From Candidatus Bathyarchaeia archaeon (GTDB taxonomy: Archaea > Thermoproteota > Bathyarchaeia > Bathyarchaeales > Bathycorpusculaceae): a stretch of DNA of 64,000 nucleotides. Shown piece by piece: positions 22,411 to 35,699 of this stretch (position 1 is the first letter of the stretch; every line of letters begins with the position of its first letter). Below the pieces are notes generated by a model. That model did no database searches. It worked only from the letters and a program-made list of their open reading frames with translations, and was not told where the DNA came from. The stretch spans positions 1 to 64,000 of the forward strand of contig JAVZLH010000001.1 of the NCBI GenBank assembly GCA_038883855.1. Reading direction: 5' to 3'. The position numbers and the translations under genes are program-made.

Positions 22411-23067
22411 TTGAAATTGAAAAAGAAAGGTATAATTGGTATAGACTTGGCTGGGAAACCAGAAAATCCTACTGGTTGGGCTTTGCTGCTGGGTAACAAT
22501 GCGAAAACAGGAGTTATTTATACGGATGGCGAAATTCTGGAGTTTATAGTCAGAAACAGCCCAGCGTTAGTTGCCATCGACGCCCCTTTTAGCCTACCAA
22601 AGACTGGTCTTTTGAGAAAGGCGGATAAGGAGATGATAAAGATGGGATATAGAGTTTTTCCGCCAAACCTTCCTTCAATGAGAGCCCTTACATTGCGGGC
22701 AATGAAGCTAAACAAGTTAATGGCAAAAAGCGGATACAAAACAATAGAGGTGCATCCAACTTCAACGCGAAAAGCCTTAAACATGCCCGCAAGAGATTTA
22801 GAGGCTATACAAGGAATCTTGAAAAGCATGGGGTTGAAAGGAGATATAGAAGTGCGCCCTTTAACAGCACATGAAATCGACGCGGTCACTGCAGCATTAA
22901 CGGGTTACCTCTACACAAAAAATAAAACGGAGTCCATAGGGGATGTGGAAGAGGGTTACATAACTGTTCCAATAAGGTGCGACTGGAGGGTGTTAAAATT
23001 TGAGTGTGATGGAAAAACTTCAGAAAGCTGTAGAAACGACAATTGCCGCAGGGTACCAGCTAGATAA
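22411..23067 (+). CDS. DUF429-family predicted RNase H-fold nuclease
   Basis: GIDLAG, AIDAP, IEVHP and HEIDAV motifs. Confidence 0.8.
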   Translation: MKLKKKGIIGIDLAGKPENPTGWALLLGNNAKTGVIYTDGEILEFIVRNSPALVAIDAPFSLPKTGLLRKADKEMIKMGYRVFPPNLPSMRALTLRAMKLNKLMAKSGYKTIEVHPTSTRKALNMPARDLEAIQGILKSMGLKGDIEVRPLTAHEIDAVTAALTGYLYTKNKTESIGDVEEGYITVPIRCDWRVLKFECDGKTSESCRNDNCRRVPAR

Positions 23068-24547
23068 AGAAGCCTTTGAGTTCCTCAAAACCGCTGCTGT
23101 AACAGGAGACCCTCTAGAAATCGTGAACAAAGCTCTGGCAAAGATGGAAAATCAAAAGGAAAAAGCGTTTTTCATTGACAGAAACTTTTTGGAATCGTTA
23201 ATGAAGGATTTTGAAAAACCAGAGGGGAACCTGCCCTCCCAAAAAGAAATCCCTCAACAACTTCCCGAACTGCAGATAACTGAGGGGAAAAAAGTTTTCC
23301 ACCCATACGCAAAGGGTGTTGACGCAAAAATCAGCGTAATCGAAGACCCGAGCACCGAAATAGGTTCTGAGGGTGCCATTGAAGACTACTTAAAGTATTT
23401 CTGCGACCGGTTTAAGCGTATGGAAAAGTTGCTGAGGCAGAGAATGGACGCTAAAGCTGCTGCCTCAATTGTGGACGCTCTAAAATCGCCAGCCAACACA
23501 AAGTTAAAAATAGTTTGCATGATTACGGATAAGAGAGAATCAAAACAGCGAATTATATTAACAGTAGAGGATTTACAAGCAAACGCCATCGCACTTGTGC
23601 CGCAAAACGCCTCACAAGAACTTTTGGCGAAAGCGCGGTCGCTTCTGCTTGACCAGGTTGTCTGTTTAGCTGTCACAAAAACGAGAAGCGACCTCCTCAT
23701 AGTGGAAGACATAATTTTGCCAGACATAAGCCAGAGACAACAGCACAAAGCACCGCTGCCAGTTTACGCCGTTTTAACTTCCGACCTTCACGTTGGCAGC
23801 ACAAAATTTCAGAAGAAGATGTTTGACCGTTTTGTGGCTTGGCTTAACGGTAATTATGGAAACGAAAAAATGAGAGAAATGGCAAGCCATGTCAAATACG
23901 TGTTGGTTGCAGGCGACATAGTTGATGGAATAGGCGTTTATCCAAACCAAATAAAGGAGTTGGCGGTGAAAGACATCCACAAGCAGTATATGCTTGCGTC
24001 AAAATACATGGAAGATATACCAGAATATATAGAGGTAGTGGTGATACCTGGAAACCACGATGCTCCGAGGAAAGCCTTGCCTCAACCAGCAATAGCAAGC
24101 GAATTCCTCAAGACACTGCAAGAAACAAGAAAAGTCCACTCCTTTGGAAACCCTTGTATGCTCAGCCTCCACGGTGTAGAAATTTTGCTATACCACGGGC
24201 GAAGCCTAGACGACCTTCTCCACACAATCCCGAAAGTGGACACCCCAGAGCAAGCTATGAAATTGCTACTGCAAAGCCGCCATTTAGCACCAATATATGG
24301 CGGAAAAACCATGGTTTCGCCCGAAAACAAGGACTTCTTAGTGATTGAACGTGTTCCAGACATTTTCCACGCGGGGCACGTGCACATACTTGGTCATACA
24401 AACTATCGCGGAACATTAATTGTGAATTCGGGCTGCTGGCAGGAACAGACTGAATACATGAAGAGAATGGGACTTACCCCAACCCCTGGAAAGGTCCCGG
24501 TGATTAACTTACAAACTTTGGAACTTATGGTGGTATCCTTTGATTAA
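23000..24547 (+). CDS. polD1: DNA polymerase D small (proofreading) subunit DP1
   Basis: OB fold followed by SDLHVGS, GDIVDG, PGNHD, YHG and HAGHVH calcineurin-like motifs. Confidence 0.95.
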   Translation: MSVMEKLQKAVETTIAAGYQLDKEAFEFLKTAAVTGDPLEIVNKALAKMENQKEKAFFIDRNFLESLMKDFEKPEGNLPSQKEIPQQLPELQITEGKKVFHPYAKGVDAKISVIEDPSTEIGSEGAIEDYLKYFCDRFKRMEKLLRQRMDAKAAASIVDALKSPANTKLKIVCMITDKRESKQRIILTVEDLQANAIALVPQNASQELLAKARSLLLDQVVCLAVTKTRSDLLIVEDIILPDISQRQQHKAPLPVYAVLTSDLHVGSTKFQKKMFDRFVAWLNGNYGNEKMREMASHVKYVLVAGDIVDGIGVYPNQIKELAVKDIHKQYMLASKYMEDIPEYIEVVVIPGNHDAPRKALPQPAIASEFLKTLQETRKVHSFGNPCMLSLHGVEILLYHGRSLDDLLHTIPKVDTPEQAMKLLLQSRHLAPIYGGKTMVSPENKDFLVIERVPDIFHAGHVHILGHTNYRGTLIVNSGCWQEQTEYMKRMGLTPTPGKVPVINLQTLELMVVSFD

Positions 24548-25074
24548 GAGAGCCCACGTGCTACTAACCTTGCAACTCGTAATGGTTCTGGAATTCTGCT
24601 CTTTATAGATAAAGCTTGCAAAAGTTTTTCAGTTGTCCTAAAATCAAGAGCTATGGTTTCGACATATATTGGTGTCTCGCCGGTTACAACGACACAGCGT
24701 GCGGTTTCCAGTTTTTCAAAAATTTGCCAGCGTACTTTCCAGTCCTTAAAGTGTTTCTGGAGAGCTTGTTTGACCGCCTTGTTGTTGGGTTTTTTCCGTG
24801 ACACAATGAGTATTGGCTTCTGAAATTTCTCATAAACGGCTGTGGGGTCAATTATGTTAAACCCAGCGAAGGATACTCCAGCAAGCAGAACCGCTACAAA
24901 GTCCCATCCGATCAACATTTCGGTTAGTTTATCTGTCGCGTCTAAACCGTCAACCGTTATTCTTGCAACTTTAATATCCTCAATTTCAACGCCTTTAGAT
25001 AAGACTGCCGCCAAAATGGCTTTTTTAGTTATGCCTTTCTGGAAACTGCCATCTTCAACTCCCACAACGGGCAT
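24544..25074 (-). CDS. DUF99-family (endonuclease V-like) protein
   Basis: VGVEDGSF, VDGLDAT, FAGFNIID and IPEPLRVA motifs; likely ATG at 25074 overlapping the cdc6 stop. Confidence 0.8.
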   Translation of the reverse strand: MPVVGVEDGSFQKGITKKAILAAVLSKGVEIEDIKVARITVDGLDATDKLTEMLIGWDFVAVLLAGVSFAGFNIIDPTAVYEKFQKPILIVSRKKPNNKAVKQALQKHFKDWKVRWQIFEKLETARCVVVTGETPIYVETIALDFRTTEKLLQALSIKSRIPEPLRVARLVARGLS

Positions 25075-26335
25075 TTTTCGAAAGGCATTTTGGCTCATAC
25101 TCAACCAGTCTCTCAAGCCTAACGTCATCCTTGAAAACTTCTCTGATAAGAGTACGTGGTATTTCCAGCCTAATCTTTTTTGTGCGCCCATAGCGCCCCA
25201 TACTTACAACTTTAGCGTTCAGCAGCCCCATCGCGTCAAGCTCGTTCACTAAAGTTCCCAACCGACGCTGAGTTAATGGTACAACGCCCATTTCGCCGCA
25301 GAGTTCCGAATAGATTTCGTAAATTTCCCCGGTAACAGAACTCTTAGCATCTACTTTATTCAAGTGATATACGCTGAAAAGCACTAGTTTGGAATGCAAC
25401 GTTAGATTTTTGAGGGCTTCTACAACTCTGTTTCGTTCAATGTGTTTTTCGGCTTCCCTAACATGGTCTTCAGATACAACATTCGCTCCGTTCCGTTCAG
25501 CAATTTCACCAGCAACCCGCAGTAAATCCAAAGCTCGCCTTGCATCGCCATGTTCCGCAGCCGCTAAAGCTGCACAAATACTTAAGGCACCCTCTGACAG
25601 CGCACCTTCGTGAAATGCTAATTTTGCTCGTTCAAGAAGAATGTTGCGAAGCTCGCTTGCGTCATAGGGTCTGAAAACCATTTCCTCCTCACTAAGCGAG
25701 CTTAAAACACGGGGATCTAGAAATTCTTTGAAGCGGAGGTCGTTTGAGATGCCTATTAGAGAGACTTTGCTATTATGGAGTGTCTCGTTTACTCTTGTTA
25801 ATTCATAGAGAAGCTCATCTCCACGAGTTTTCACAAGTGAATCCACTTCATCCAATGCCACAATTAACATCGTCTTCCCCGCGTCAAGCCTCTTCCTGAA
25901 TCGGTCAAAAACTTCTCCTACAGAAAGACCTGTAAACGGTATATGAAGCCCTATGCTTTGGCATAGACTTGCAAACACACGATACTCGGAGCCGACCATA
26001 CGACAGTTTACATAACAGAATTTAACTGGAGCGTTATACTCTTTTGCAGTTGCCTCTAGATACCCCAGCACATATTTTGTAACGGCTGTCTTCCCTGTAC
26101 CTGTTTTTCCATAAATGAAGATATTAGAGCACCGTGCGGCTTTGAGGACAGGGGCAACTATTTCGCCAAGCAACTTTATCTGTTCCTCTCTATGAGGTAA
26201 TTTTTCTGGAAGGTAATCGTGGCGCAAGACTTCTCTATCCTTGAAAATCTTGGAGTTATTAACAAATCTGCGAAACACGTTGACTAATACATCGTCGTCC
26301 AACTGAAACCCCCTCAATCTCTCCAAAGGTAGCAC
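25055..26335 (-). CDS. cdc6: Orc1/Cdc6 replication initiator
   Basis: LPHREEQ, GKTGTGKT, LDEVD, HGDARRALDLL and C-terminal wHTH with GRYGRT. Confidence 0.96.
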   Translation of the reverse strand: MLPLERLRGFQLDDDVLVNVFRRFVNNSKIFKDREVLRHDYLPEKLPHREEQIKLLGEIVAPVLKAARCSNIFIYGKTGTGKTAVTKYVLGYLEATAKEYNAPVKFCYVNCRMVGSEYRVFASLCQSIGLHIPFTGLSVGEVFDRFRKRLDAGKTMLIVALDEVDSLVKTRGDELLYELTRVNETLHNSKVSLIGISNDLRFKEFLDPRVLSSLSEEEMVFRPYDASELRNILLERAKLAFHEGALSEGALSICAALAAAEHGDARRALDLLRVAGEIAERNGANVVSEDHVREAEKHIERNRVVEALKNLTLHSKLVLFSVYHLNKVDAKSSVTGEIYEIYSELCGEMGVVPLTQRRLGTLVNELDAMGLLNAKVVSMGRYGRTKKIRLEIPRTLIREVFKDDVRLERLVEYEPKCLSKNARCGS

Positions 26336-26437
26336 CTCTTTTTCTTATGGATAAGATAAGCTATGCCGTATAGAAAACTAAATTTTTGACACTACATTCC
26401 TAAAGAGAAAGAAAATTGTTTTGAGGGACAGAGAGCG

Positions 26438-26461
26438 CACCCCCGAATTTCCACTGGAAAC
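26438..26461 (-). promoter_or_regulatory. Origin recognition box ORB1
   Basis: Minus strand GTTTCCAGTGGAAATTCGGGGGTG: ORB core plus G-string. Confidence 0.88.
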
Positions 26462-26614
26462 TCTAAAAGCACCTTTCACAAGATGCTGTTTTCCTTTTAA
26501 AAAGGAAAAATACTCTGAAAGGTAAAGCATTAAAAACCATAATAATAATTATTATTAAAAAAATTAGACAATTATTTAAAACAGCTTGCATATACTTTGC
26601 CAGAAGTTCTAACT

Positions 26615-26637
26615 TTTCCAGAGGAAACTAAGGGGTG
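26615..26637 (+). promoter_or_regulatory. Origin recognition box ORB2
   Basis: TTTCCAGAGGAAACTAAGGGGTG, inverted relative to ORB1. Confidence 0.88.
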
Positions 26638-26857
26638 AGCTTCACATCATGAACTCCAAACTGTTTCCCATTTTCTCTATTCTTTTCATTTTTCTTAAAT
26701 ATTCCCAAAACATACAATTTCAATTATTCCCCTTTAACCGTCACCTTTAAACTTCACAAAAATGTGAAAAGATTGTGAAATAAACTCAAGAATGTTTCTT
26801 TTTCAACCTTTTTATTCCAATAATTTAACTTTTTATGTCTCTTTACTGTAAAAAAGA

Positions 26858-26881
26858 CACCCCTTTATTTCTACTGGAAAC
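26858..26881 (-). promoter_or_regulatory. Origin recognition box ORB3
   Basis: Minus strand GTTTCCAGTAGAAATAAAGGGGTG. Confidence 0.85.
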
Positions 26882-27079
26882 AAATGCTTAACTCTATCCT
26901 ATTCTCTTTTGAATTATGGAAAAATTCTGTGAAGTCCGTAAGCATGAAAAGGTGGAAAAAAAGGGTCTTTTTGTGTTTTCGTAAAAAAATAACCTTTTTA
27001 TCAATTGTTTCTTTCACCGTAATAGCTATAACTAGTTAACTGTAAAATTGTACACTCGGGCAATGGTGTACTCTTAGGG

Positions 27080-27508
27080 ATGCCAGCGAGAAAGATGCGT
27101 GTTGAACTATTCGATAATGAGGGGAATCGATACACGATAGTTTTTGAAGGGCAAGTTACAAGAGATAAAGCCCTACGCTTATTAGACCTTGTAGAGTTAC
27201 TCGGGGGGATACCAGCTAATGAGAGCAATCCAAACACCATTACCGCAAGCAACACTGACGTTCCAAAATGTGAAAAAGTTCACATTTGCGTCCAAAAGAA
27301 CTTTCCAGTTGTCTGGTTCTCTTCAAGGGATGTGCAAGCAGCTTATGAGCAAGAGTTTAAAGAACCTATAAGCTTAAGCACCGTAGCCACATACCTTGCA
27401 AGGATGGCTAACAAAGGATACCTCTTAAAGACTGGAGCCTCCAACAAGTTAAAGTATAGACTCGCTTCCCATATTCCGCAAGTTGTTCCAAAACATAAAA
27501 TTCCTTAA
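27080..27508 (+). CDS. Uncharacterised two-domain protein with C-terminal winged helix
   Basis: Short N-terminal beta-beta-alpha-like segment, polar linker, then WFSSRDVQ...ISLSTVATYLARMANKGYL wHTH pattern. Confidence 0.75.
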   Translation: MPARKMRVELFDNEGNRYTIVFEGQVTRDKALRLLDLVELLGGIPANESNPNTITASNTDVPKCEKVHICVQKNFPVVWFSSRDVQAAYEQEFKEPISLSTVATYLARMANKGYLLKTGASNKLKYRLASHIPQVVPKHKIP

Positions 27509-27523
27509 TTAAACTTACATTAA

Positions 27524-28228
27524 CTATGCATTTTTACTTTCTGTCTTCTTTAAGATATCCTCCATTTCCTTTTTAACACTATACTTAAACGGAATCTTTT
27601 TTATATCCCTCTCTAAATAACCCGCCTCATAAAGCTTCTTCATCAACCTCGCCGTATGCTCCCTACTAAGCTTAATTCTCTCCTTAATCTCAGGAGCAGT
27701 CTTAGGTCCCTCAAGAGCCAACATCCTTAACACTGCCACCTCTGTTTCGGTCAAGGGGGCCAAGGCCTTCTCCTTCTTTATTGGGATTACCGCTTCAGCT
27801 CTGATCTCAGGGGCCTCTGAAAAATGACGCAGCTGTTCTTCTATGGCCGAAACCTTTGCAACTAAAATTTCATGTGACGCAACAGTATCACGCATTCTCT
27901 TATCCACGTCCTCAACTTTCGTTACTGCTTCTGTTTCAACTTTTGCAATTTTATCCTCTAAGATGCGCATTTTTCCTTCAACCTTCTCAGCCTTGCTTAA
28001 CGCCTTTTCACTTTTTGAAGAAAGAGCCTCAACTTTAAACGCTAAAGTTTCAAGCTTTTCGCCTTCGCGTTTAAGTTGCCTGTTAAAGCTTAGAACGACA
28101 TCTTCAACGACCTCTTTCGCTTTGCTATATTCTCTGCAAATTTTGCGAATTTGACGGTAATATTCAATCGCAGCACCGACTGTTGCGGTAAGCAGAACAC
28201 CAAGAAGAATTAACGAAAAATCAAGCAT
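27524..28228 (-). CDS. Membrane-anchored coiled-coil protein with C-terminal winged helix
   Basis: N-terminal TM (FSLILLGVLLTATVGAAI), about 110 aa of heptad-rich K/E helix, then LTETEVAVL...KTAPEIK...SREHTARLMKKL wHTH. Confidence 0.8.
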   Translation of the reverse strand: MLDFSLILLGVLLTATVGAAIEYYRQIRKICREYSKAKEVVEDVVLSFNRQLKREGEKLETLAFKVEALSSKSEKALSKAEKVEGKMRILEDKIAKVETEAVTKVEDVDKRMRDTVASHEILVAKVSAIEEQLRHFSEAPEIRAEAVIPIKKEKALAPLTETEVAVLRMLALEGPKTAPEIKERIKLSREHTARLMKKLYEAGYLERDIKKIPFKYSVKKEMEDILKKTESKNA

Positions 28229-28241
28229 ACTTTCACCCCTA

Positions 28242-28529
28242 CGTGATTCCTATGTGATAACGCTTGACTCAAACATGTTACATCACAAATCACAATTCCA
28301 CGCACTTATGATTTAAAAGTTACGGTTATCAAGGTGTATGACATCACACATCACAAGATAACTGAAGCAATATTTGAATAAACGCTTTTGAATAAAAGCT
28401 CTATTTATTCTGTTTGAGAATATTTTAGAGTTTTTTCTGATTTTTGTTTTCTTAACTGCTTTATTTAGGTGTTGACGCGTGTTTTGCGTTTTGTATTCCA
28501 AAATTTAATGTGACTTGTGACGTCACAAG
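28242..28529. repeat. Array of TGTGA(T/C)/(A/G)TCACA motifs, including three 19-bp tripartite units and a perfect 16-bp palindrome
   Basis: Units at 28276-28294, 28337-28355 and 28509-28527; palindrome CTTGTGACGTCACAAG at 28514-28529. Confidence 0.8.
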
Positions 28530-28990
28530 CTTTCCTCGGATGAATTTGCAAACTTTTTCAGTTGAATTTCAAGCTCTTCCCTGAGAATTTCGATGATTTT
28601 AAGCTGTTCAGTTTTGTTGGGCATGTTTTTGAATGCTTCTACATATTCCCGTAGTTTGTTACCTATTTCAAGATAAGGGTCTAAAGTTGTGGTCTCAAAG
28701 ATTCCCAAGTACCCTAAAAGAAGCACAGTGTAAATAGCTTTTATGACGTTTTGCTTTGCTTGTTTTAAAGTCCTATTGAAGGCTCCGCGGCTTATTTTAG
28801 CATTTGTTAGTCGTAATTTGGCTTTTTCATCGTATTTTAGCGGTTTACCCGCAGCGTTTTCGGATAAAATGTCAATTAGTAATGTTTCTAGCTGCGTTTT
28901 CGTTAAATTGCTATTTTTAGCGAGAATTTTAGCAACAGGGTCATTTAATGAGCTTATTATTAAAGATTGAACGCTTTCTTTAAGCTTCAA
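28523..28990 (-). CDS. Uncharacterised helical protein with HTH-like segment
   Basis: SNLTKTQLETL...KYDEKAKLR...ISRGAFNRTLKQAK pattern; TTG start. Confidence 0.7.
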   Translation of the reverse strand: MKLKESVQSLIISSLNDPVAKILAKNSNLTKTQLETLLIDILSENAAGKPLKYDEKAKLRLTNAKISRGAFNRTLKQAKQNVIKAIYTVLLLGYLGIFETTTLDPYLEIGNKLREYVEAFKNMPNKTEQLKIIEILREELEIQLKKFANSSEESL

Positions 28991-29418
28991 AGTCTACACC
29001 ACACGAGCACTCCCTGTGGATACAATTTTGTATACAGCCTACGCTTTTAAAACCATCGATGACGGATAAAAACTTTAATGCTTTTGAATTACCTTCCAAG
29101 AATGGCTAAAAACAATAAAGCCTTATGAAATATGGCGATTTTTTGTTTTAGACAAATAAAATCGCCGATTAAGCGCGCCCCATTTCTCCATCAAGCACGA
29201 TCTCTTGAAGTTAAGAGATATTCCGCCTTGGGCTACGCAAGCCTATAGCTAAAAGTACGCCATAGTCAGAAAAGTAATATTGTCCAAGAGTTAACGGAAC
29301 AAAACACCTTCTCGACCGCTGTTGATTGAACTGGTAATGCGGGTGCAAGAATCGTTCACTATGAGATGAGCATTTCCTATCCTATCTTATTACCTAAGGA
29401 AAATAATTTAATCCTCTT

Positions 29419-29520
29419 TGTGAATACTGTGATGTCACTTGTCACGGAAAAGTCACGTGTGATGCCTCTCTTTCATGTAGAGTGTTGCCATAAATGTGAT
29501 TTTATTGTGATTTGCGTGAT
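29419..29520. repeat. Second dense array of GTGA/TCAC motifs (9 copies in 102 bp)
   Basis: Hexamers start at 29419, 29428, 29434, 29441, 29452, 29458, 29495, 29506 and 29515. Confidence 0.8.
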
Positions 29521-29523
29521 TTA

Positions 29524-30357
29524 TTAAAGGCTTTCTGCATGTCCTTTTAATTCGTCAAAAAGTTCAGGTCGTAGATCTTTCAAAGTTGGGACGAAAGTTT
29601 CAGTTGGCTTTATGTCCGCGTAGTCAATAGCACCAATTACAAGGTCTTCCTCGTCATACTTTGCGCAAGCAATAAGTTTTCCTTGAGGGCCTACAAGTCT
29701 GCTTCCTCCCCAAAATTGTAGGCCGTTTTCTATACCTACTAGATTAACGTATGCTAGGAAAGTGGTGTTTTCTATCGCTCTTGCCAATGTCAAAGTTTCG
29801 AAAAATGTCTTTCGAACAGATGGTGAGGCTGAAATGCAAACAATTAACTGGGCGCCTTTAAGGCGAGTTAGACGACATATTTCTGGAAAGAAGATGTCGT
29901 AACAGATTATCAACCCTATTCTCCCGATTTCTGTTTCGAAAGTTGCTGCTTGATATCCGGGTCGGAAATACCTTTTTTCTTCAAAAACACTGTGTGTTGG
30001 AAGGTGTATCTTCCGGTATTTTCCAACAAAACCTTCCGGCCCAACAAGAATTGCTGTGTTGTAAACCACGGCTTGAGTTTTCTCGCTTAATTCTGGCATA
30101 CCGAAAATTATATGCGTTTTATGTTTCTTCGCAACGTTTTCTATAGCCTTTGTTGAAGGTCCCGGTATTGTTTCCGCTAACTCGTAAATTTGGTCTCGAA
30201 TGACGTAGCCCGTTAGCGAAAGTTCTGGGAAAATTACGAGATGTGCATCTTGTTCTTTAGCTTTTGCGACGTATTTTTCCATTTTCCTAATGTTTTCTTT
30301 TTTGTTTCCTCTGTTGCAGCTTATTTGGGCTAGGGCAATCTTAAACTTACTTATCAT
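29524..30357 (-). CDS. Carbon-nitrogen hydrolase (nitrilase superfamily)
   Basis: E-K-C triad in FPELSLTGY, YRKIHLP and ICYDIFFPE. Confidence 0.9.
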   Translation of the reverse strand: MISKFKIALAQISCNRGNKKENIRKMEKYVAKAKEQDAHLVIFPELSLTGYVIRDQIYELAETIPGPSTKAIENVAKKHKTHIIFGMPELSEKTQAVVYNTAILVGPEGFVGKYRKIHLPTHSVFEEKRYFRPGYQAATFETEIGRIGLIICYDIFFPEICRLTRLKGAQLIVCISASPSVRKTFFETLTLARAIENTTFLAYVNLVGIENGLQFWGGSRLVGPQGKLIACAKYDEEDLVIGAIDYADIKPTETFVPTLKDLRPELFDELKGHAESL

Positions 30358-30378: not shown

Positions 30379-31221
30379 TTACATGAAATCCCGTGGGAGC
30401 CTCAAATCCATTCCCACGGTTCTATATCCAAGCTTGATGGTTAATAGCGTTTGCCTTTTGTGTTCTGTGGAAAGCCACCTTTTCTTCACTCTCTCCACCA
30501 AATCTTTTTCTATCCCCAGCTGCTGCGCTATTTCCTCTGTTTCCATAAAATGTTCAAGCCCGTAGAGGATGAGATCAAGCTGTTCATATTTTATACCTAA
30601 CTCGTTTTCAGCGAGTTGCCCTGGCCACAAGGCTGGTGATGGAGGCTTTTCTACAATCTCGCTGGGGACGCCTATGTGCTGGGCCAGTTTTCGGACTTGT
30701 GTCTTGTATAGGTCGAGGAGCGGCCAAATGTCTGCTGCTGCGTCTCCCCATTTTGTGAAATATCCCATCATGGCTTCTGATTTGTCTGAACTGCCGCACA
30801 CAAGCATGTTGAGCTTGTTAGCGTAGTAATAAATGCAAATCATCCGTGTTCTAGCCTTTATGTTACCCTTAGAGACCTTCTCAGCTGGGTCAAAGACGGG
30901 TATGGTATTGTAAAAAGCGCGCAAAACTGCTGTGATATCACAAATGTGGGTTTTAAACCCAAACTTTTTTGCCAAAAGCTGTGCGTGTTCAATGTCCCGC
31001 TCATTACGCGTTTCCCCTTCTGGAAGTATAAGTCCTAAAACTTTGTCTCCCCCTATAGCCAAGGCGGAAAGCGCCGCCGCTGTGCTGCTGTCTACTCCTC
31101 CTGATGCGCCCAATACTATACCGTTTGCCCCAGACTTTTCTACGTAATCCTTAATGAAGCGCTTAATTTTCCCCTCAACTTCAACCCAGTTCATATCTAG
31201 AACGGACGGAGTTAACTCCAA
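30379..31221 (-). CDS. nadE: NAD+ synthetase (single domain)
   Basis: SGGVDS, NIKARTRM, GYFTKWGD and KPPSPALWPGQ motifs. Confidence 0.93.
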   Translation of the reverse strand: MELTPSVLDMNWVEVEGKIKRFIKDYVEKSGANGIVLGASGGVDSSTAAALSALAIGGDKVLGLILPEGETRNERDIEHAQLLAKKFGFKTHICDITAVLRAFYNTIPVFDPAEKVSKGNIKARTRMICIYYYANKLNMLVCGSSDKSEAMMGYFTKWGDAAADIWPLLDLYKTQVRKLAQHIGVPSEIVEKPPSPALWPGQLAENELGIKYEQLDLILYGLEHFMETEEIAQQLGIEKDLVERVKKRWLSTEHKRQTLLTIKLGYRTVGMDLRLPRDFM

Positions 31222-31412
31222 CCTAATCCCAACCGTTTAGGTGTAAGGCAAATATTTAAAGACAAATATAAATACTGAAAGGTTATAAATTTAAGGCATA
31301 GAAGGCCTTTATATGAGGCGAAATATGCGCGAACTACGGGATACATCAAAAGGCGTGTATGAGGGGCGACCTTCTGAGGTTAGTGTTAGAAAGGTTTATT
31401 GAGGCTGGGTTT

Positions 31413-32165
31413 ATGGTCGGTCCTATTGAAAAATATTTGCTCGAAAAGATAGAGGCTGAAAGTGCTATCCACATCACGCTTATAGACCCTGAAGAGGTTA
31501 CGCCTCCGCAAGCCTCAACAATAGCAAGCAAAGCGGAAAAGAGCGGGACATCGGCCATAATGGTAGGAGGCTCAACTTTTATTTCATCTGCCCATTTGGA
31601 TAAAGTGGTCAAAGCTGTGAAAAAGGTTGTTGAGTTACCAGTAATTCTTTTCCCGAACAACGTTACTGGAATAACCCGTTATGCTGATGCCATATGGTTT
31701 ATGTCTCTGCTAAACTCTACCGACCCCTACTTCTTGATGGGAGCCCAAGTGCTAGGAGCCCCCTTAGTTAAAAAGTACCGTTTGGAGCCAATCCCCCTTG
31801 GATACATAATTGTGGGTGACGGTGGCACAGCTGGCATTGTTGGTAAAGCTGTTCCCATACCGTATAATAAGCCAGAACTTGCGGCAGCTCATGCCTTAGC
31901 GGGACAATATTTGGGAATGCGATTCATTTATTTGGAGGCGGGGTCAGGAGCGAAAAAACCTGTTCCTGCGAGTATGATTAGCGCTGTTAAACGTTGCATT
32001 GATGTTCCTCTAATAGTTGGGGGCGGTATTAGAACTAGGGAAGAAGCGTTGGCAGCGGCATCTGCAGGGGCGAATATTATTGTTACAGGCAACGTTGTTG
32101 AAAATTCAGGGGTTAGGAAGAAGGTTTCCGAAATTGTCGGCGGCATAAGGCATAACCGACGTTGA
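31413..32165 (+). CDS. Geranylgeranylglyceryl phosphate synthase
   Basis: LIDPE, MVGGS, YLEAGSG and VGGGIR motifs; likely ATG at 31413. Confidence 0.92.
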   Translation: MVGPIEKYLLEKIEAESAIHITLIDPEEVTPPQASTIASKAEKSGTSAIMVGGSTFISSAHLDKVVKAVKKVVELPVILFPNNVTGITRYADAIWFMSLLNSTDPYFLMGAQVLGAPLVKKYRLEPIPLGYIIVGDGGTAGIVGKAVPIPYNKPELAAAHALAGQYLGMRFIYLEAGSGAKKPVPASMISAVKRCIDVPLIVGGGIRTREEALAAASAGANIIVTGNVVENSGVRKKVSEIVGGIRHNRR

Positions 32166-32285: not shown

Positions 32286-35200
32286 TTGAACGGTCCAATA
32301 AGTGAAACATATCGCCAATACGTAACTGCATTGGAAAGCGAGTTTAAACGGTTATACGCTTTAAGTGAAAAAGCGAGAGAAAAAGGGTTCGACCCTGCGC
32401 TAAAGCCAGAATCCAAAATTGCAAGAGATCTAGCAGACCTTGTAGAGGGTCTTGTAGGTCCAAAAGGCGTGGCCGAAAGCATTAGGGAATTAAGCGAGAA
32501 ACTTTCGCGCGAAGAATTAGCCTTTAAAATAGTTGAAGAAATAATTTATGGAAAATTTGGCCACATGGAACCCGAGGCGGCGGCGGAACAAGCGATACGA
32601 ACTGCCCTTGCAATTTTCACTGAGGGGCTCACCGCAGCGCCGATACAGGGAGTGGCGAAGGTTAAAATTAAAACAAACCGTGACCGCACTCGCTATCTTG
32701 CCATTTACTTTGCTGGTCCAATAAGGTCTGCGGGCGGAACAGACCAGGCGCTGACGCTTGTTGTAGGAGATTTCGTGCGACGTCTTCTCGGCTTAGACCG
32801 TTACAAGCCTTTGGACGATGAGGTTTCACGCTTTATTGAAGAAGTAAGGCTTTATGAACGTTCAGTAAGCCGTTTTCAATACCATGTTTCTGATGAGGAA
32901 TTGCGGAGAGCTCTCCAATGGCTGCCAGTGGAAGTTACAGGCACGGAATCCGACCCCATAGAAGTTTCTGCTTTTCGGAATCTTCCCCGAATTGAAACCA
33001 ACCGTTTGAGGGGCGGAGCCCTCCGCGTTGTTAATGATGGCATTGTTGGGCGCGCGCCAAAAGTTTGGGCTATTATAGAGAAGCTTGGTTTTCAAGGATG
33101 GGATTGGCTGAAGGAGTTTCAAAAGAAGTCTGAGAAAAAATCCGGAGGCTTTATGGATGATGTAATTGCTGGACGCCCGATATTCTCTTTTCCGTCTGCC
33201 CGTGGCGGTTTTAGGTTAAGGTATGGTAGGGCGAGAAACACGGGCTTAGCCGCCGTTGGAATGCACCCGGCAAGCATGCAAGTGCTCGGCGGCTTTTTGG
33301 CGGCTGGAACACAACTACGTTTGGAGCTTCCAGGCAAGGGTGGCATTGCGGTTCCAGTTGACGCTTTAGAACCGCCAATTGTCAAGCTGAAAGATGGTTC
33401 TGTTGTTCGTGTTTCCACTGAAAACTATGCTAGGATAAAGGGTGATGTTGAGAAAATTCTCTTTTTGGGAGACATTTTAATCAGTTTTGGGGATTTTCTT
33501 TACAACAGTAAAGTTCTCGTGCCTTCTGGGTATGTTGAAGAGTGGTGGGCTGAAGATCTGAAAAGGGCTTTGGCTGAAAAATTCAATGGTAACCTTGAAA
33601 AGGCTGCGGAAGCTGCAAAAATTCCAGTGGAGAAAATTAAGGGTTTCTTGGAAAATCCATTTGGCAAAAAGCCAAATGTTAAAGAAGCTATAGCCTTGTC
33701 GTTTGCAATTGGTGTTCCTCTTCACCCGGCTTTCACGTTTTTCTGGTCGAATCTTGTTTCGCTTGAAGAGCTTGCCCTTTTAAGGAAATGGCTCTCTGCT
33801 TCCGTAGTTGATTATGGTAATGGAGTCTGCAAAATTTCTGGAGAGATAGACGCAAAGGTCAAGCATGCCCTAGAGGCTATTTATTTGCCGCACAAGGTTT
33901 TAGATGGAAAAATAGTTGTCGAAAACGAGGAAGCCTATGCCTTTGCCTTTTCCCTTGGCTATGGAACTACGCGGAACACTGATATTTCAGCGGCAAAATC
34001 TGTTTTGGAAGCTGTCAGTTTGCTTTCCGGCGTGCAAATTAGGGATAAGGCTCCTACGCTTGTTGGCGCCAGAATGGGAAGACCTGAAAAGGCAAAGCGG
34101 CGGGAAATGAAGCCCCCTGTTCATGTTCTTTTCCCCGTTGGCTTGGCTGGAGGTGCCCAAAGAGACATTGTAGAGGCGGCGAAGGGAGGGCCAGTTTTTG
34201 TGGAGGTTGTTAAGCGTAAATGCCCAACGTGTAAGACGTTTACCTTTGGCATAAGATGTCCTGTTTGTGGCTCTGAAACTGTCACTGAAAATGTTTGTCC
34301 TATATGCGGGAAGAGTGTGAAGAATGATAAATGTCCAATTTGTAAAGTGCCGGCAAAACCCTTCCAAACGCAAGTTGTTAACTTTAAGGAACTGTTGGAG
34401 ACGGCTTGTGCGCGTTTGGGTTTTTCTTTGCCTAAGGTTTTGAAAGGCGTTAGAGGGTTAACAAATGAGACAAAGACTCCGGAGATTATTGAGAAGGGTG
34501 TTCTCCGCGCTAAATATGACTTGTCTGTTTACAAGGATGGCACAATTCGTTTTGACGCGACAAATGCTCCCTTAACGCATTTTAAACCGTCTGAAATTGG
34601 AGTGTCTGTTGAGAAACTGAAGGAGCTTGGCTATGCCTATGATGTTTATGGCGCGCCGTTAACTAACCCAGATCAAGTTTGTGAATTAAAGATTCAAGAC
34701 ATCATCATTCCCGTGAAATGCGCGGAATATTTTGTTCATGTTGCAAATTTCCTAGATGACCTTTTAACCAAGGTTTATGGGCTCGCTACCTACTATAACG
34801 TTAGGAAGCCGGAAGATCTTGTGGGGCATCTTGTTTTTGGCTTAGCTCCTCATACATCTGTGGGTATTCTGGGGCGGATTGTTGGCTTCACCAGTTTAAA
34901 TGTTTGTTATGCTCATCCAGTTTGGCATTCTGCTAAACGCAGAGATTGTGATGGCGACGAGGATGCGTTGATGCTTGCTTTGGACACTTTGCTTAACTTT
35001 TCAACTGAGTATTTGCCCGCGCAAATAGGCGGGATAATGGATGCTCCGCTGCTTGTGATTCCTGTTGTCAACACTAAGGAAGTGCAGAGGCAAGCCCATG
35101 ATTTTGATGTCGCAGAGGCTTATCCTCTCGAGTTTTACGAGAAAACATGGGAAAAAGTGGAAGCCAAACGCGTAAGTTCCCTCATAGACCTTATCGAATA

Positions 35201-35699
35201 CAGACTCGGCACCGAGGCACAGTTCGAGGGCTTCAAGTTTACTGTGCCAGTCACGAATGTCAACATGGGGAATCCTGAAAGCGCCTATAAACGGCTTACA
35301 ACGATGATTGATAAACTTAACAGCCAGTTGGAGTTGGCTGAGAAAATAGAGGCTGTGGACGCGAGAAGGGTTGCCCTTAAGGTTTTAACAACGCATTTCA
35401 TAAGGGACATTGCTGGTAATTTGCGGGCTTACTCCACTCAAGGTTTTAGGTGCAAAGCATGCAACAAACGTTTTCGCCGTTTACCTCTTTGCGGAAAATG
35501 CCCGTCATGCGGTGGGCAACTAACTTTAACGGTTTACCGTGGGGGCATCGAAAAATATTTGGAGGCAGCTCAGCGGTTGGTTGAAAGGTATGGTTTGCCG
35601 CAGTATTATGCTCAGAGGATTTTGTTAATGAAAGAGGAGATTAAGGCGTTGTTTGAGGGGAAAAAGCGGAAGCAAATCAGCCTAATTGATTTTGCCTAA
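32286..35699 (+). CDS. polD2: DNA polymerase D large subunit DP2, no intein
   Basis: FAGPIRSAGGT, GGFRLRYGR, RMGRPEK, catalytic RRDCDGDED and zinc-finger Cys clusters. Confidence 0.97.
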   Translation: MNGPISETYRQYVTALESEFKRLYALSEKAREKGFDPALKPESKIARDLADLVEGLVGPKGVAESIRELSEKLSREELAFKIVEEIIYGKFGHMEPEAAAEQAIRTALAIFTEGLTAAPIQGVAKVKIKTNRDRTRYLAIYFAGPIRSAGGTDQALTLVVGDFVRRLLGLDRYKPLDDEVSRFIEEVRLYERSVSRFQYHVSDEELRRALQWLPVEVTGTESDPIEVSAFRNLPRIETNRLRGGALRVVNDGIVGRAPKVWAIIEKLGFQGWDWLKEFQKKSEKKSGGFMDDVIAGRPIFSFPSARGGFRLRYGRARNTGLAAVGMHPASMQVLGGFLAAGTQLRLELPGKGGIAVPVDALEPPIVKLKDGSVVRVSTENYARIKGDVEKILFLGDILISFGDFLYNSKVLVPSGYVEEWWAEDLKRALAEKFNGNLEKAAEAAKIPVEKIKGFLENPFGKKPNVKEAIALSFAIGVPLHPAFTFFWSNLVSLEELALLRKWLSASVVDYGNGVCKISGEIDAKVKHALEAIYLPHKVLDGKIVVENEEAYAFAFSLGYGTTRNTDISAAKSVLEAVSLLSGVQIRDKAPTLVGARMGRPEKAKRREMKPPVHVLFPVGLAGGAQRDIVEAAKGGPVFVEVVKRKCPTCKTFTFGIRCPVCGSETVTENVCPICGKSVKNDKCPICKVPAKPFQTQVVNFKELLETACARLGFSLPKVLKGVRGLTNETKTPEIIEKGVLRAKYDLSVYKDGTIRFDATNAPLTHFKPSEIGVSVEKLKELGYAYDVYGAPLTNPDQVCELKIQDIIIPVKCAEYFVHVANFLDDLLTKVYGLATYYNVRKPEDLVGHLVFGLAPHTSVGILGRIVGFTSLNVCYAHPVWHSAKRRDCDGDEDALMLALDTLLNFSTEYLPAQIGGIMDAPLLVIPVVNTKEVQRQAHDFDVAEAYPLEFYEKTWEKVEAKRVSSLIDLIEYRLGTEAQFEGFKFTVPVTNVNMGNPESAYKRLTTMIDKLNSQLELAEKIEAVDARRVALKVLTTHFIRDIAGNLRAYSTQGFRCKACNKRFRRLPLCGKCPSCGGQLTLTVYRGGIEKYLEAAQRLVERYGLPQYYAQRILLMKEEIKALFEGKKRKQISLIDFA

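Follow-up and report, generated by a model that had tools for sequence, protein, structure and literature searches.

A short DNA element built on the half-site RTCAC (GTGAY on the other strand; R, purine; Y, pyrimidine) recurs beside the probable replication origin of a Candidatus Bathyarchaeia archaeon, in the first 64 kb of contig JAVZLH010000001.1 (positions 1 to 64,000, hereafter the window). Judged by its sequence in related species, the element is real, functionally constrained and conserved throughout the class. It forms four units, E1 to E4, which flank two minus-strand genes, the open reading frames (ORFs) ORF155 and ORF234. The units are very probably DNA elements bound by a protein, and we put at slightly better than even the chance that they make up a cooperative operator array bound by a multimeric protein encoded at the locus, most likely ORF234.

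The repeated unit and its conservation

The original prediction had described four copies of a 19-bp tripartite motif, and a direct reading of positions 27600-30200 agrees with it in letters and coordinates. On the plus strand, E1 reads TGTTACATCACAAATCACA (28276-28294) and E2 TATGACATCACACATCACA (28337-28355); E3 is TGTGACGTCACAAGTCACA on the minus strand of 28509-28527, and the core of E4 is TGTGATGTCACTTGTCACG (29428-29446, plus strand). Resolved into half-sites, the units and their accessory sites are the following.

28276..28294, minus strand: E1, triple half-site unit, TGTGATT-TGTGATG-TAACA, over the predicted transcription start of ORF234
28337..28355, minus strand: E2, triple half-site unit, TGTGATG-TGTGATG-TCATA, upstream of the TFB recognition element (BRE) and TATA box of ORF234
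28509..28527, minus strand: E3, perfect unit, TGTGAC-GTCACA-A-GTCACA, in the opposite orientation to E1, E2 and E4
29428..29463, plus strand: E4, extended, five half-sites, GTGAT-GTCAC-tt-GTCAC-N6-GTCAC-gt-GTGAT, about 440 bp upstream of the ORF155 start
29496..29520, plus strand: three extra GTGAT half-sites starting at 29496, 29507 and 29516 (periods of 11 and 9 bp), just past the stop codon of the carbon-nitrogen (CN) hydrolase gene
28243..28258, minus strand: pair of ATCAC half-sites at an 11-bp distance in the 5' untranslated region (UTR) predicted for ORF234

The basic unit is 17 bp long, GTGAY-NN-GTGAY-RTCAY, with two direct half-sites at a 7-bp period and a third, inverted one abutting the second, and the array consists of four such units plus accessory half-sites at 7- or 11-bp spacing. 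The half-sites that go beyond the earlier description are GTGAT at 28243, 28254, 29496, 29507 and 29516 and the pair GTCAC-GT-GTGAT at 29452-29463. There are 17 RTCAC/GTGAY pentamers in 28243-29520; the window as a whole has 141 per 64 kb, or 2.2 per kb.

Base composition, which had been named as a possible source of such counts, does not account for them. The 19-mer TGTGAYRTCACANRTCACA, with up to three mismatches, has four matches in the window, which are E1 to E4 only (0.16 expected), and four were reached in none of 100 dinucleotide shuffles. The same holds for the 7-bp direct pair RTCAC-NN-RTCAC, whose four matches in the window are identical to E1 to E4 (0.24 expected; 0 of 100 shuffles reach four), and the pair with an 11-bp period, RTCAC-N6-RTCAC, matches three times in the window, always inside the site clusters (0.17 expected). 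The palindrome GTGAYRTCAC alone, with at most one mismatch, was not significant, with six occurrences in the window against 2.99 expected and 10 of 100 shuffles reaching six; the signal therefore resides in the tripartite arrangement and in the clustering.

For comparison, we used the loci of 80 Bathyarchaeia species, the best 80 of 309 relatives, retrieved by alignment of ORF155 homologues; the unit was sought in 64 kb from the present genome and in about 12 kb from each relative. The 80 loci have a conserved order of DNA polymerase D (PolD) large subunit, geranylgeranylglyceryl phosphate (GGGP) synthase, NadE, CN hydrolase, gap, ORF155, ORF234, ORF142, oriC and Cdc6. In the sampled flanks, ORF234 adjoins ORF155 in 79 of the 80 loci, ORF142 is present in 73 and Cdc6 in 67.

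The exact unit, searched as GTGAY-NN-GTGAY-R[Y][C/A]A[Y], occurs 284 times in the 888,474 bp of these loci, and 282 of the occurrences lie at four orthologous places; the other two are in the E4 zone, in the opposite orientation. Twenty mononucleotide shuffles of the 80 loci gave 0 to 1 exact units. Outside the four places, no unit was found in the window, and none in the 888 kb of related loci beyond the E4 zone. An exact unit is present at E3 and at E2 in all 80 loci, at E1 in 69 and at E4 in 47; with at most one mismatch, E1 is found in 78 and the strict unit of E4 in 65. Conservation at the orthologous locus, a check named with the original prediction, thus extends to 80 of 80 species loci. 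In an alignment of the ORF155-ORF234 spacer from 81 sequences, the core positions G, T, G, A and T, C, A, C of the half-sites are invariant (81/81) and the flanks drift. Even the third half-sites that are imperfect keep their form across the alignment: RTCAT in E2, where the T at the last position is present in 81 of 81 sequences, and GYAAC in E1.

Placement at a promoter, a stop codon and a decayed gene

The densest cluster of half-sites is the promoter of ORF234, where a TTAAAT block stands between E2 and E1.

28311..28318, minus strand: predicted TATA box of ORF234, TTTTAAAT; TTAAAT block, conserved to at least 90% over the 81 sequences

From its sequence and position, this block appears to be a TATA box. 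E1 starts 20-23 bp past TTAAA in the large majority of the 78 loci that have both E1 and E2, and E2 starts 38-51 bp before the TATA box in most loci; the distance between E3 and E2 floats (118-207 bp among loci). Since an archaeal TATA box is centred near -26, E1 would cover the transcription start of ORF234 and E2 would lie upstream of the BRE and TATA box, and the tight coupling of E1 to the TATA box points to control of transcription. Together with E2, one ATCAC half-site stands just upstream of the BRE/TATA, and the 81-sequence alignment has two or three more in the predicted 5' UTR, before a Shine-Dalgarno-like AGGTG (consensus AATCAC...TCACA...AATCACAG-AGGTG, conserved over the 81 sequences). 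In the window, the 5'-UTR half-sites at 28243..28258 precede a Shine-Dalgarno-like GGGTGA and the ATG of ORF234 at 28228. The sites thus overlap the core promoter and the predicted transcription start of the putative regulator's own gene, as autoregulatory operators do.

The other two units are placed differently. E3 overlies the stop codon of ORF155 in 80 of 80 loci, its first GTGA providing the TGA stop. E4 lies 400-650 bp upstream of ORF155 among the loci, in a gap that in 35 of the 80 holds a class I/II aminotransferase gene on the opposite strand (PF00155, 5.2e-71 in locus L007). There, E4 encodes V-x-S-L-(I/V)-T-x-K-S-R-V, directly before the NPNNPTG motif. Among the 128 columns with a conserved degenerate residue, only six have a single codon in at least 90% of 34 intact aminotransferase genes, and four of the six are within the 11 codons of E4 (Val GTG, 100%; Ser TCA, 100%; Arg CGT, 91%; Val GTG, 97%), codons whose gene-wide use is 22-27%. 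A fifth fixed codon (Val GTG, column 265, 100% of the 34) belongs to another GTGAT half-site, the counterpart of those at 29496..29520. In the invariant NPNNPTG motif, synonymous codons vary freely among the 34 genes. By this codon evidence, E4 is a DNA-level signal under synonymous-codon constraint in the loci with the aminotransferase.

In the window, tblastn recovers the following trace of that gene.

29106-29156 and 29381-29464, plus strand: two fragments of a decayed class I/II aminotransferase

The intact aminotransferases of loci L007, L013 and L072 matched the window with E-values of 0.021 and 3e-4, from a small database. E4 is intact here although its host gene has decayed to two fragments; E4 outlives its host gene. 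With at most one mismatch, 32 of the 35 loci that carry the aminotransferase gene have its strict unit, as do 33 of the 45 that lack the gene, one of the 45 being too short to judge. A 53-aa ORF listed at 29366-29527 is part of the aminotransferase remnant.

Candidate readers and known systems

ORF234 has an N-terminal transmembrane helix, a heptad-rich coiled coil of about 130 aa and, at its C-terminal end, a winged helix (aa 159-218). In Pfam, this domain matches MarR (1.5e-7; 31.6 bits, cut-off 24.6) and TrmB (PF01978; 2.6e-6; 27.6 bits, cut-off 25.6), and in NCBIfam Lrs14 (2.3e-6) and Sta1 (4.3e-5), the last two below the curated cut-offs. Its recognition helix LSREHTARLM is invariant in 35 of 35 aligned homologues, and the following KKLYE is nearly so. 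Pfam gave no effector domain in ORF234, which consists only of the membrane helix, coiled coil and winged helix; about three residues lie outside the membrane, and there is no sensor domain. ORF234 is the best candidate reader because most half-sites lie on its promoter and because it carries a winged helix of the TrmB/MarR/Lrs14 type with a near-invariant recognition helix. A further reason is that TrmB-family proteins, according to PMC4158304, recognise ATCAC/GTGAT half-sites and exert their effect from upstream of the BRE/TATA or at +1.

In the mechanism that we favour, an ORF234 multimer would bind the RTCAC array cooperatively. Occupancy of E1 over the ORF234 transcription start would block RNA polymerase and result in negative autoregulation, and E2 and the 5'-UTR half-sites would contribute cooperativity or activation. 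As auxiliary operators, E3 and E4 could raise local occupancy or loop the DNA around ORF155. The original prediction of cooperative, polarised sites for an oligomeric protein is borne out as far as oriented multi-half-site units beside winged-helix genes fit it; protein binding itself, the identity of the binder and the sign of regulation are what we infer from the sequences. Such an array would combine several unusual features, namely triple half-site units, a unit on a stop codon, a unit embedded in and outliving a neighbouring gene and, probably, a membrane-anchored reader beside oriC.

Several observations weigh against this assignment. The exact E1 pattern is not matched in 11 of 80 loci, and E4, with up to one mismatch allowed, is missing from 12 of the 45 loci without the aminotransferase and from 3 of the 35 with it. 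The transcription start of ORF234 is a prediction from the TATA box, and what is known of the unit's distribution comes from the 64 kb of the window and about 12 kb from each relative. [quoted passage not shown] E3 and E4 stand at a long distance from the ORF234 promoter, and their conservation is stricter than is usual for auxiliary operators. Finally, the sites are flanked by three putative DNA-binding proteins, ORF234, ORF155 and ORF142, which are equally conserved candidates; all have near-invariant helices, and covariation therefore cannot choose the reader among them; between the half-sites, no R/Y covariation was found that would give a clue to pairing or reader.

The strongest alternative, which we nevertheless regard as rather unlikely, keeps the element and changes its reader: ORF155, ORF142 or a factor encoded elsewhere would control ORF234 and/or ORF155, and ORF234 would bind some other operator, for instance GTATAC. 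In its favour, E3 and E4 bracket ORF155 and not ORF234. ORF155 is 67-94% identical over the loci, as conserved as Cdc6 (68-95%), and 72-92% identical among the 120 homologues listed, and its helix SRGxFNRTL.Q is invariant. It matches no family in Pfam or NCBIfam, and its homologues make up at least 275 representative clusters at 50% identity. An AlphaFold2 (AF2) model from a 60-sequence alignment, used in place of an earlier, unusable one from a shallow alignment (predicted local distance difference test [pLDDT] 56), has a pLDDT of 91.8 and is all-alpha, with seven helices; this confident model suggests a new protein family. The best local fold match of the model is SigD region 4 (3vep_D; probability 0.72, 61 columns), and the modelled fold makes a sigma-region-4-like helix-turn-helix (HTH; ISRGAFNRTLKQAK) possible. 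There is also a weak DUF134 signal (Pfam E 0.019 in 3 of 60 members), one source labels a homologue "UPF0251", and the Atlas has a Sigma70_r4-bearing cluster (0.80); these are leads only.

Against ORF155 as the reader, the HTH comes from sub-threshold matches only. Foldseek against the PDB gave nothing below E 1, both ORF155 profiles against PDB sequences gave nothing below E 0.1, and Pfam on 33 and on 60 family members gave scattered sub-threshold matches only. Moreover, the promoter of ORF155 has no RTCAC site and carries a different conserved element.

29017..29035, minus strand: second operator-like element, GTATACAAAATTGTATCCA, just downstream of the ORF155 TATA box TTTTAAAA at 29045-29052

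This element, GTATACAAAANTGTATCCA, differs from the RTCAC unit, is at least 90% conserved and overlies the predicted transcription start of ORF155; with up to four mismatches, it is found at the ORF155 promoter in 79 of 80 loci, and elsewhere in the loci there are only scattered single matches. As to ORF142, a protein of 142 aa, the case rests on its synteny in 73 of 80 loci and on a weak C-terminal winged-helix match (Penicillinase_R, E 0.0029, below the curated cut-off). ORF142 may be an origin-associated factor, and its start faces oriC. For any reader other than ORF234, the density of half-sites on the ORF234 promoter is an adverse point. A predicted complex of ORF234 (aa 30-234) with ORF155 scored 0.00, a value that says nothing either way. 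In the literature, we found nothing relevant on a Bathyarchaeia origin-adjacent regulator, a membrane-bound archaeal winged-helix regulator or the origin recognition boxes (ORBs) of the group, which does not prove absence.

The array that we assign to ORF234 resembles several known systems in part. The small archaeal winged-helix regulators of the Lrs14, Sta1 and MarR types are autoregulated, and ORF234 shares with them the winged-helix domain and operators over the core promoter of the regulator's own gene; it differs in its membrane anchor and long coiled coil, and its sites differ in their triple half-site units, class-wide conservation and auxiliary copies on a neighbour's stop codon and in or beside another gene. 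ToxR and CadC of bacteria and ArnR of Sulfolobus are membrane-bound one-component transcription factors with an N-terminal DNA-binding domain and an external or sensor part. The DNA-binding domain of ORF234 is likewise tethered by a single membrane helix, but it is a C-terminal winged helix, with about three residues outside and no sensor.

The Thermococcales glycolytic motif (TGM), TATCAC-N5-GTGATA, is read by the TrmB-family proteins TrmBL1/Tgr, and its position upstream of the BRE/TATA or at +1 decides between activation and repression (PMC4158304). It has the ATCAC/GTGAT half-site in common with the present element, and the candidate reader ORF234 carries a TrmB-type winged helix. The TGM itself, however, consists of one convergent inverted repeat whose halves are separated by 5 bp, and this geometry is absent here: RTCAC-N5-GTGAY and its divergent form have no matches in the window. 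TrmBL1 is soluble, with a sugar-binding domain and a regulon, whereas ORF234 has a membrane helix and coiled coil and the RTCAC sites are seen at one locus.

The original prediction drew its analogy with the omega protein of plasmid pSM19035. According to PMC9499535, an omega array has 7-10 WATCACW heptads in an unbroken row, RHH dimers are its readers and it is coupled to ParA; at least four contiguous heptads are required for omega to activate its ParA. The analogy stands for the ATCAC core and the direct 7-bp period, AATCACA at 28288-28294 fitting the WATCACW heptad exactly, and also for the mixture of direct and inverted copies, the overlap with promoters of the locus's own genes and the expectation of high affinity only for two or more adjacent repeats. 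It does not extend to array length, a single register, the RHH reader or the ParA partner. Here at most two half-sites per unit are in 7-bp register and the inverted third abuts at a 5-bp offset, each array has 3-5 half-sites (the five of E4 broken by a 6-bp gap), and the omega-like pair ATCAC-NN-GTGAY is found in E4 alone (convergent, 29452-29463). The setting is an archaeal chromosome and not a Firmicute plasmid, and the likely reader is a winged-helix protein. Pfam found no RHH protein among the flanking ORFs (E at most 0.01) or five small intergenic ORFs (E at most 1), and none of the window's 51 ORFs of 150 aa or more was found to encode a ParA/MinD/SegA-type ATPase, ParB or SegB. The RTCAC element therefore belongs to neither the omega nor the TGM family, but it may act as a cooperative multi-site operator array.

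The origin region and further explanations

The genes and other features around the array are as follows.

23000-24547, plus strand: PolD small subunit
24544-25191, minus strand: Endo_dU
25055-26335, minus strand: Orc1/Cdc6
26336-27079: AT-rich origin region with three ORB-like repeats at 26438-26461, 26615-26637 (inverted) and 26858-26881
27080-27508, plus strand: ORF142, weak winged-helix match
27524-28228, minus strand: ORF234
28523-28990, minus strand: ORF155
28991-29523: 530-bp gap
29524-30357, minus strand: CN hydrolase
30379-31221, minus strand: presumably NadE
31359-32165, plus strand: presumably GGGP synthase
32286-35699, plus strand: presumably PolD large subunit

The region 26336-27079 has a GC content of 0.34, lies beside cdc6 and contains three ORB-like repeats, CACCCC...TTTCCACTGGAAAC, one of them inverted, which match the ORB consensus as generally known; on these sequence features it is probably oriC. 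E1 to E4 stand 1.4-2.6 kb from the nearest ORB-like repeat. The repeats (CACCCC...TTTCnACTGGAAAC, 26438-26881) have no similarity to the RTCAC units, which do not match the ORB consensus.

Some further observations were made in this neighbourhood. The ORFs of Cdc6 (stop at 25055) and Endo_dU (start at 25191), which are on one and the same strand, share 137 bp, and the true start of Endo_dU is probably further downstream than the first listed start codon. Inside ORF142, at 27266-27287, there is a perfect 22-bp palindrome, AAATGTGAAAAAGTTCACATTT, with the CRP-like geometry TGTGA-N6-TCACA; it was dropped as a candidate, since the geometry occurs in 0 of 80 related loci and is lineage-specific or due to chance. 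A tRNA scan of the whole window found none. In about half of the loci, a 2.7-kb insertion separates ORF234 from ORF142 (L007, 7475-10061); it is not present in the window. It encodes a HerA-like ATPase (DUF87, 4e-9) and a 350-aa ORF with no Pfam match, which we would guess is possibly NurA-like.

The proximity of the array to oriC suggests an explanation of another kind, which we consider improbable, namely that the sites are a chromosome-organising, centromere-like or anchoring site through which membrane-anchored ORF234 tethers or marks the origin region, promoter control being a by-product. Comparable cases are parS/ParB near bacterial origins, omega-parS and RacA-ram. Bacterial chromosomal parS/ParB sites are origin-proximal, few, sometimes within coding DNA and strictly conserved, and all of this can be said of the RTCAC sites, which always lie within a few kb of oriC/cdc6 (Cdc6 being found in 67 of 80 loci in the sampled flanks). 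The sites in coding DNA are under synonymous constraint and outlive their host gene, their invariance is extreme, and the unit is nowhere else in the 64-kb window or the 888 kb of loci. An N-terminal transmembrane helix with no external domain in the likely reader would hold bound DNA at the membrane, and the ATCAC core and 7-bp period are those of omega parS (PMC9499535).

Other evidence speaks against an anchor, and no test made here demonstrated a centromere function. Conserved origin-proximal sites were found, but the window contains neither a dedicated ATPase nor a centromere-binding protein of a known family: ParA/MinD/SegA-type ATPases, ParB, SegB and RHH proteins are all lacking among its 51 ORFs of at least 150 aa and five small ORFs. 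The clusters have only 3-5 half-sites, against the at least four contiguous heptads that omega requires to activate its ParA (PMC9499535). Unlike parS, the sites have another motif and one unit fixed to a TATA box, and such locking of E1 is needless for a pure anchoring site. The distance to oriC, moreover, shifts by about 2.7 kb where the HerA-like and neighbouring genes are inserted. We likewise give little credence to the fuller proposal that ORF234 and the RTCAC arrays, as its only high-affinity targets, would be a hitherto unrecognised archaeal device holding or marking oriC at the membrane, a centromere-like anchor that would serve chromosome positioning or segregation in Bathyarchaeia without ParA/ParB or SegAB. 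It is equally doubtful that ORF155 would be a co-evolved partner in such a device, and autoregulation a by-product as with omega and many ParB proteins.

Very improbable is a second origin-like module, in which inverted E3 and E2 would flank the 120-200-bp AT-rich spacer as ORBs flank an unwinding element, under a locus-encoded initiator. E3 and E2 are indeed mutually inverted about an AT-rich, poorly conserved spacer, the locus adjoins the canonical oriC, and oriC3 of Sulfolobus, which uses the winged-helix initiator WhiP, offers a precedent. Yet the spacer is an ordinary terminator/promoter gap between two genes, in which the TATA box is conserved and E1 keeps a fixed distance from the promoter; a canonical ORB-bearing origin is already present 1.3 kb off, and no helicase-loader gene is specific to the module.

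The least credible explanation is an RNA element, in which GUGAU/AUCAC repeats would pair within transcripts: at E3 they would give ORF155 a hairpin or terminator at its 3' end, and in the 5' UTR of ORF234 a hairpin masking the ribosome-binding site. In its favour, the terminator scan picks out E3 as a stem of 6 bp with TTAAATTTTG after it, and the ORF234 5' UTR in the window can form a 13-pair hairpin (-15.4 kcal/mol). Against it, 60 of the 81 sequences would have C facing A in the E3 stem, and compensatory changes are not seen (R and Y vary independently); the 5'-UTR fold has z = -1.29 with 24 of 200 shuffles folding equally well. Moreover, E2 stands upstream of the TATA box, the orientation of E3 is opposite to that of E1, E2 and E4, and E4 is antisense inside another gene. 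An Rfam scan of 26000-30000 (E at most 1) gave no match, and no known RNA accounts for the 530-bp gap. The sigma-70 promoter and terminator scan gave counts at or below those of shuffles, the sigma-70 model being not applicable to archaeal promoters.

Bathyarchaeia are abundant uncultured archaea of sediments, and to our knowledge their gene regulation and chromosome biology are essentially unstudied. The locus supplies a sharply defined cis element, with 17-bp units and invariant cores; its candidate readers, two or three in number, lend themselves to expression and in-vitro assays with no need to culture the organism. It also offers a clear natural example of a DNA signal that lies within a protein-coding gene, where it constrains the choice of synonymous codons, and that survives the loss of the gene, and a membrane-anchored winged-helix protein beside oriC makes a link between membrane and origin testable. 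Even as an autoregulatory operator array and nothing more, it would be a regulatory module conserved across the class, and it could usefully mark the origin region in metagenome-assembled genomes.

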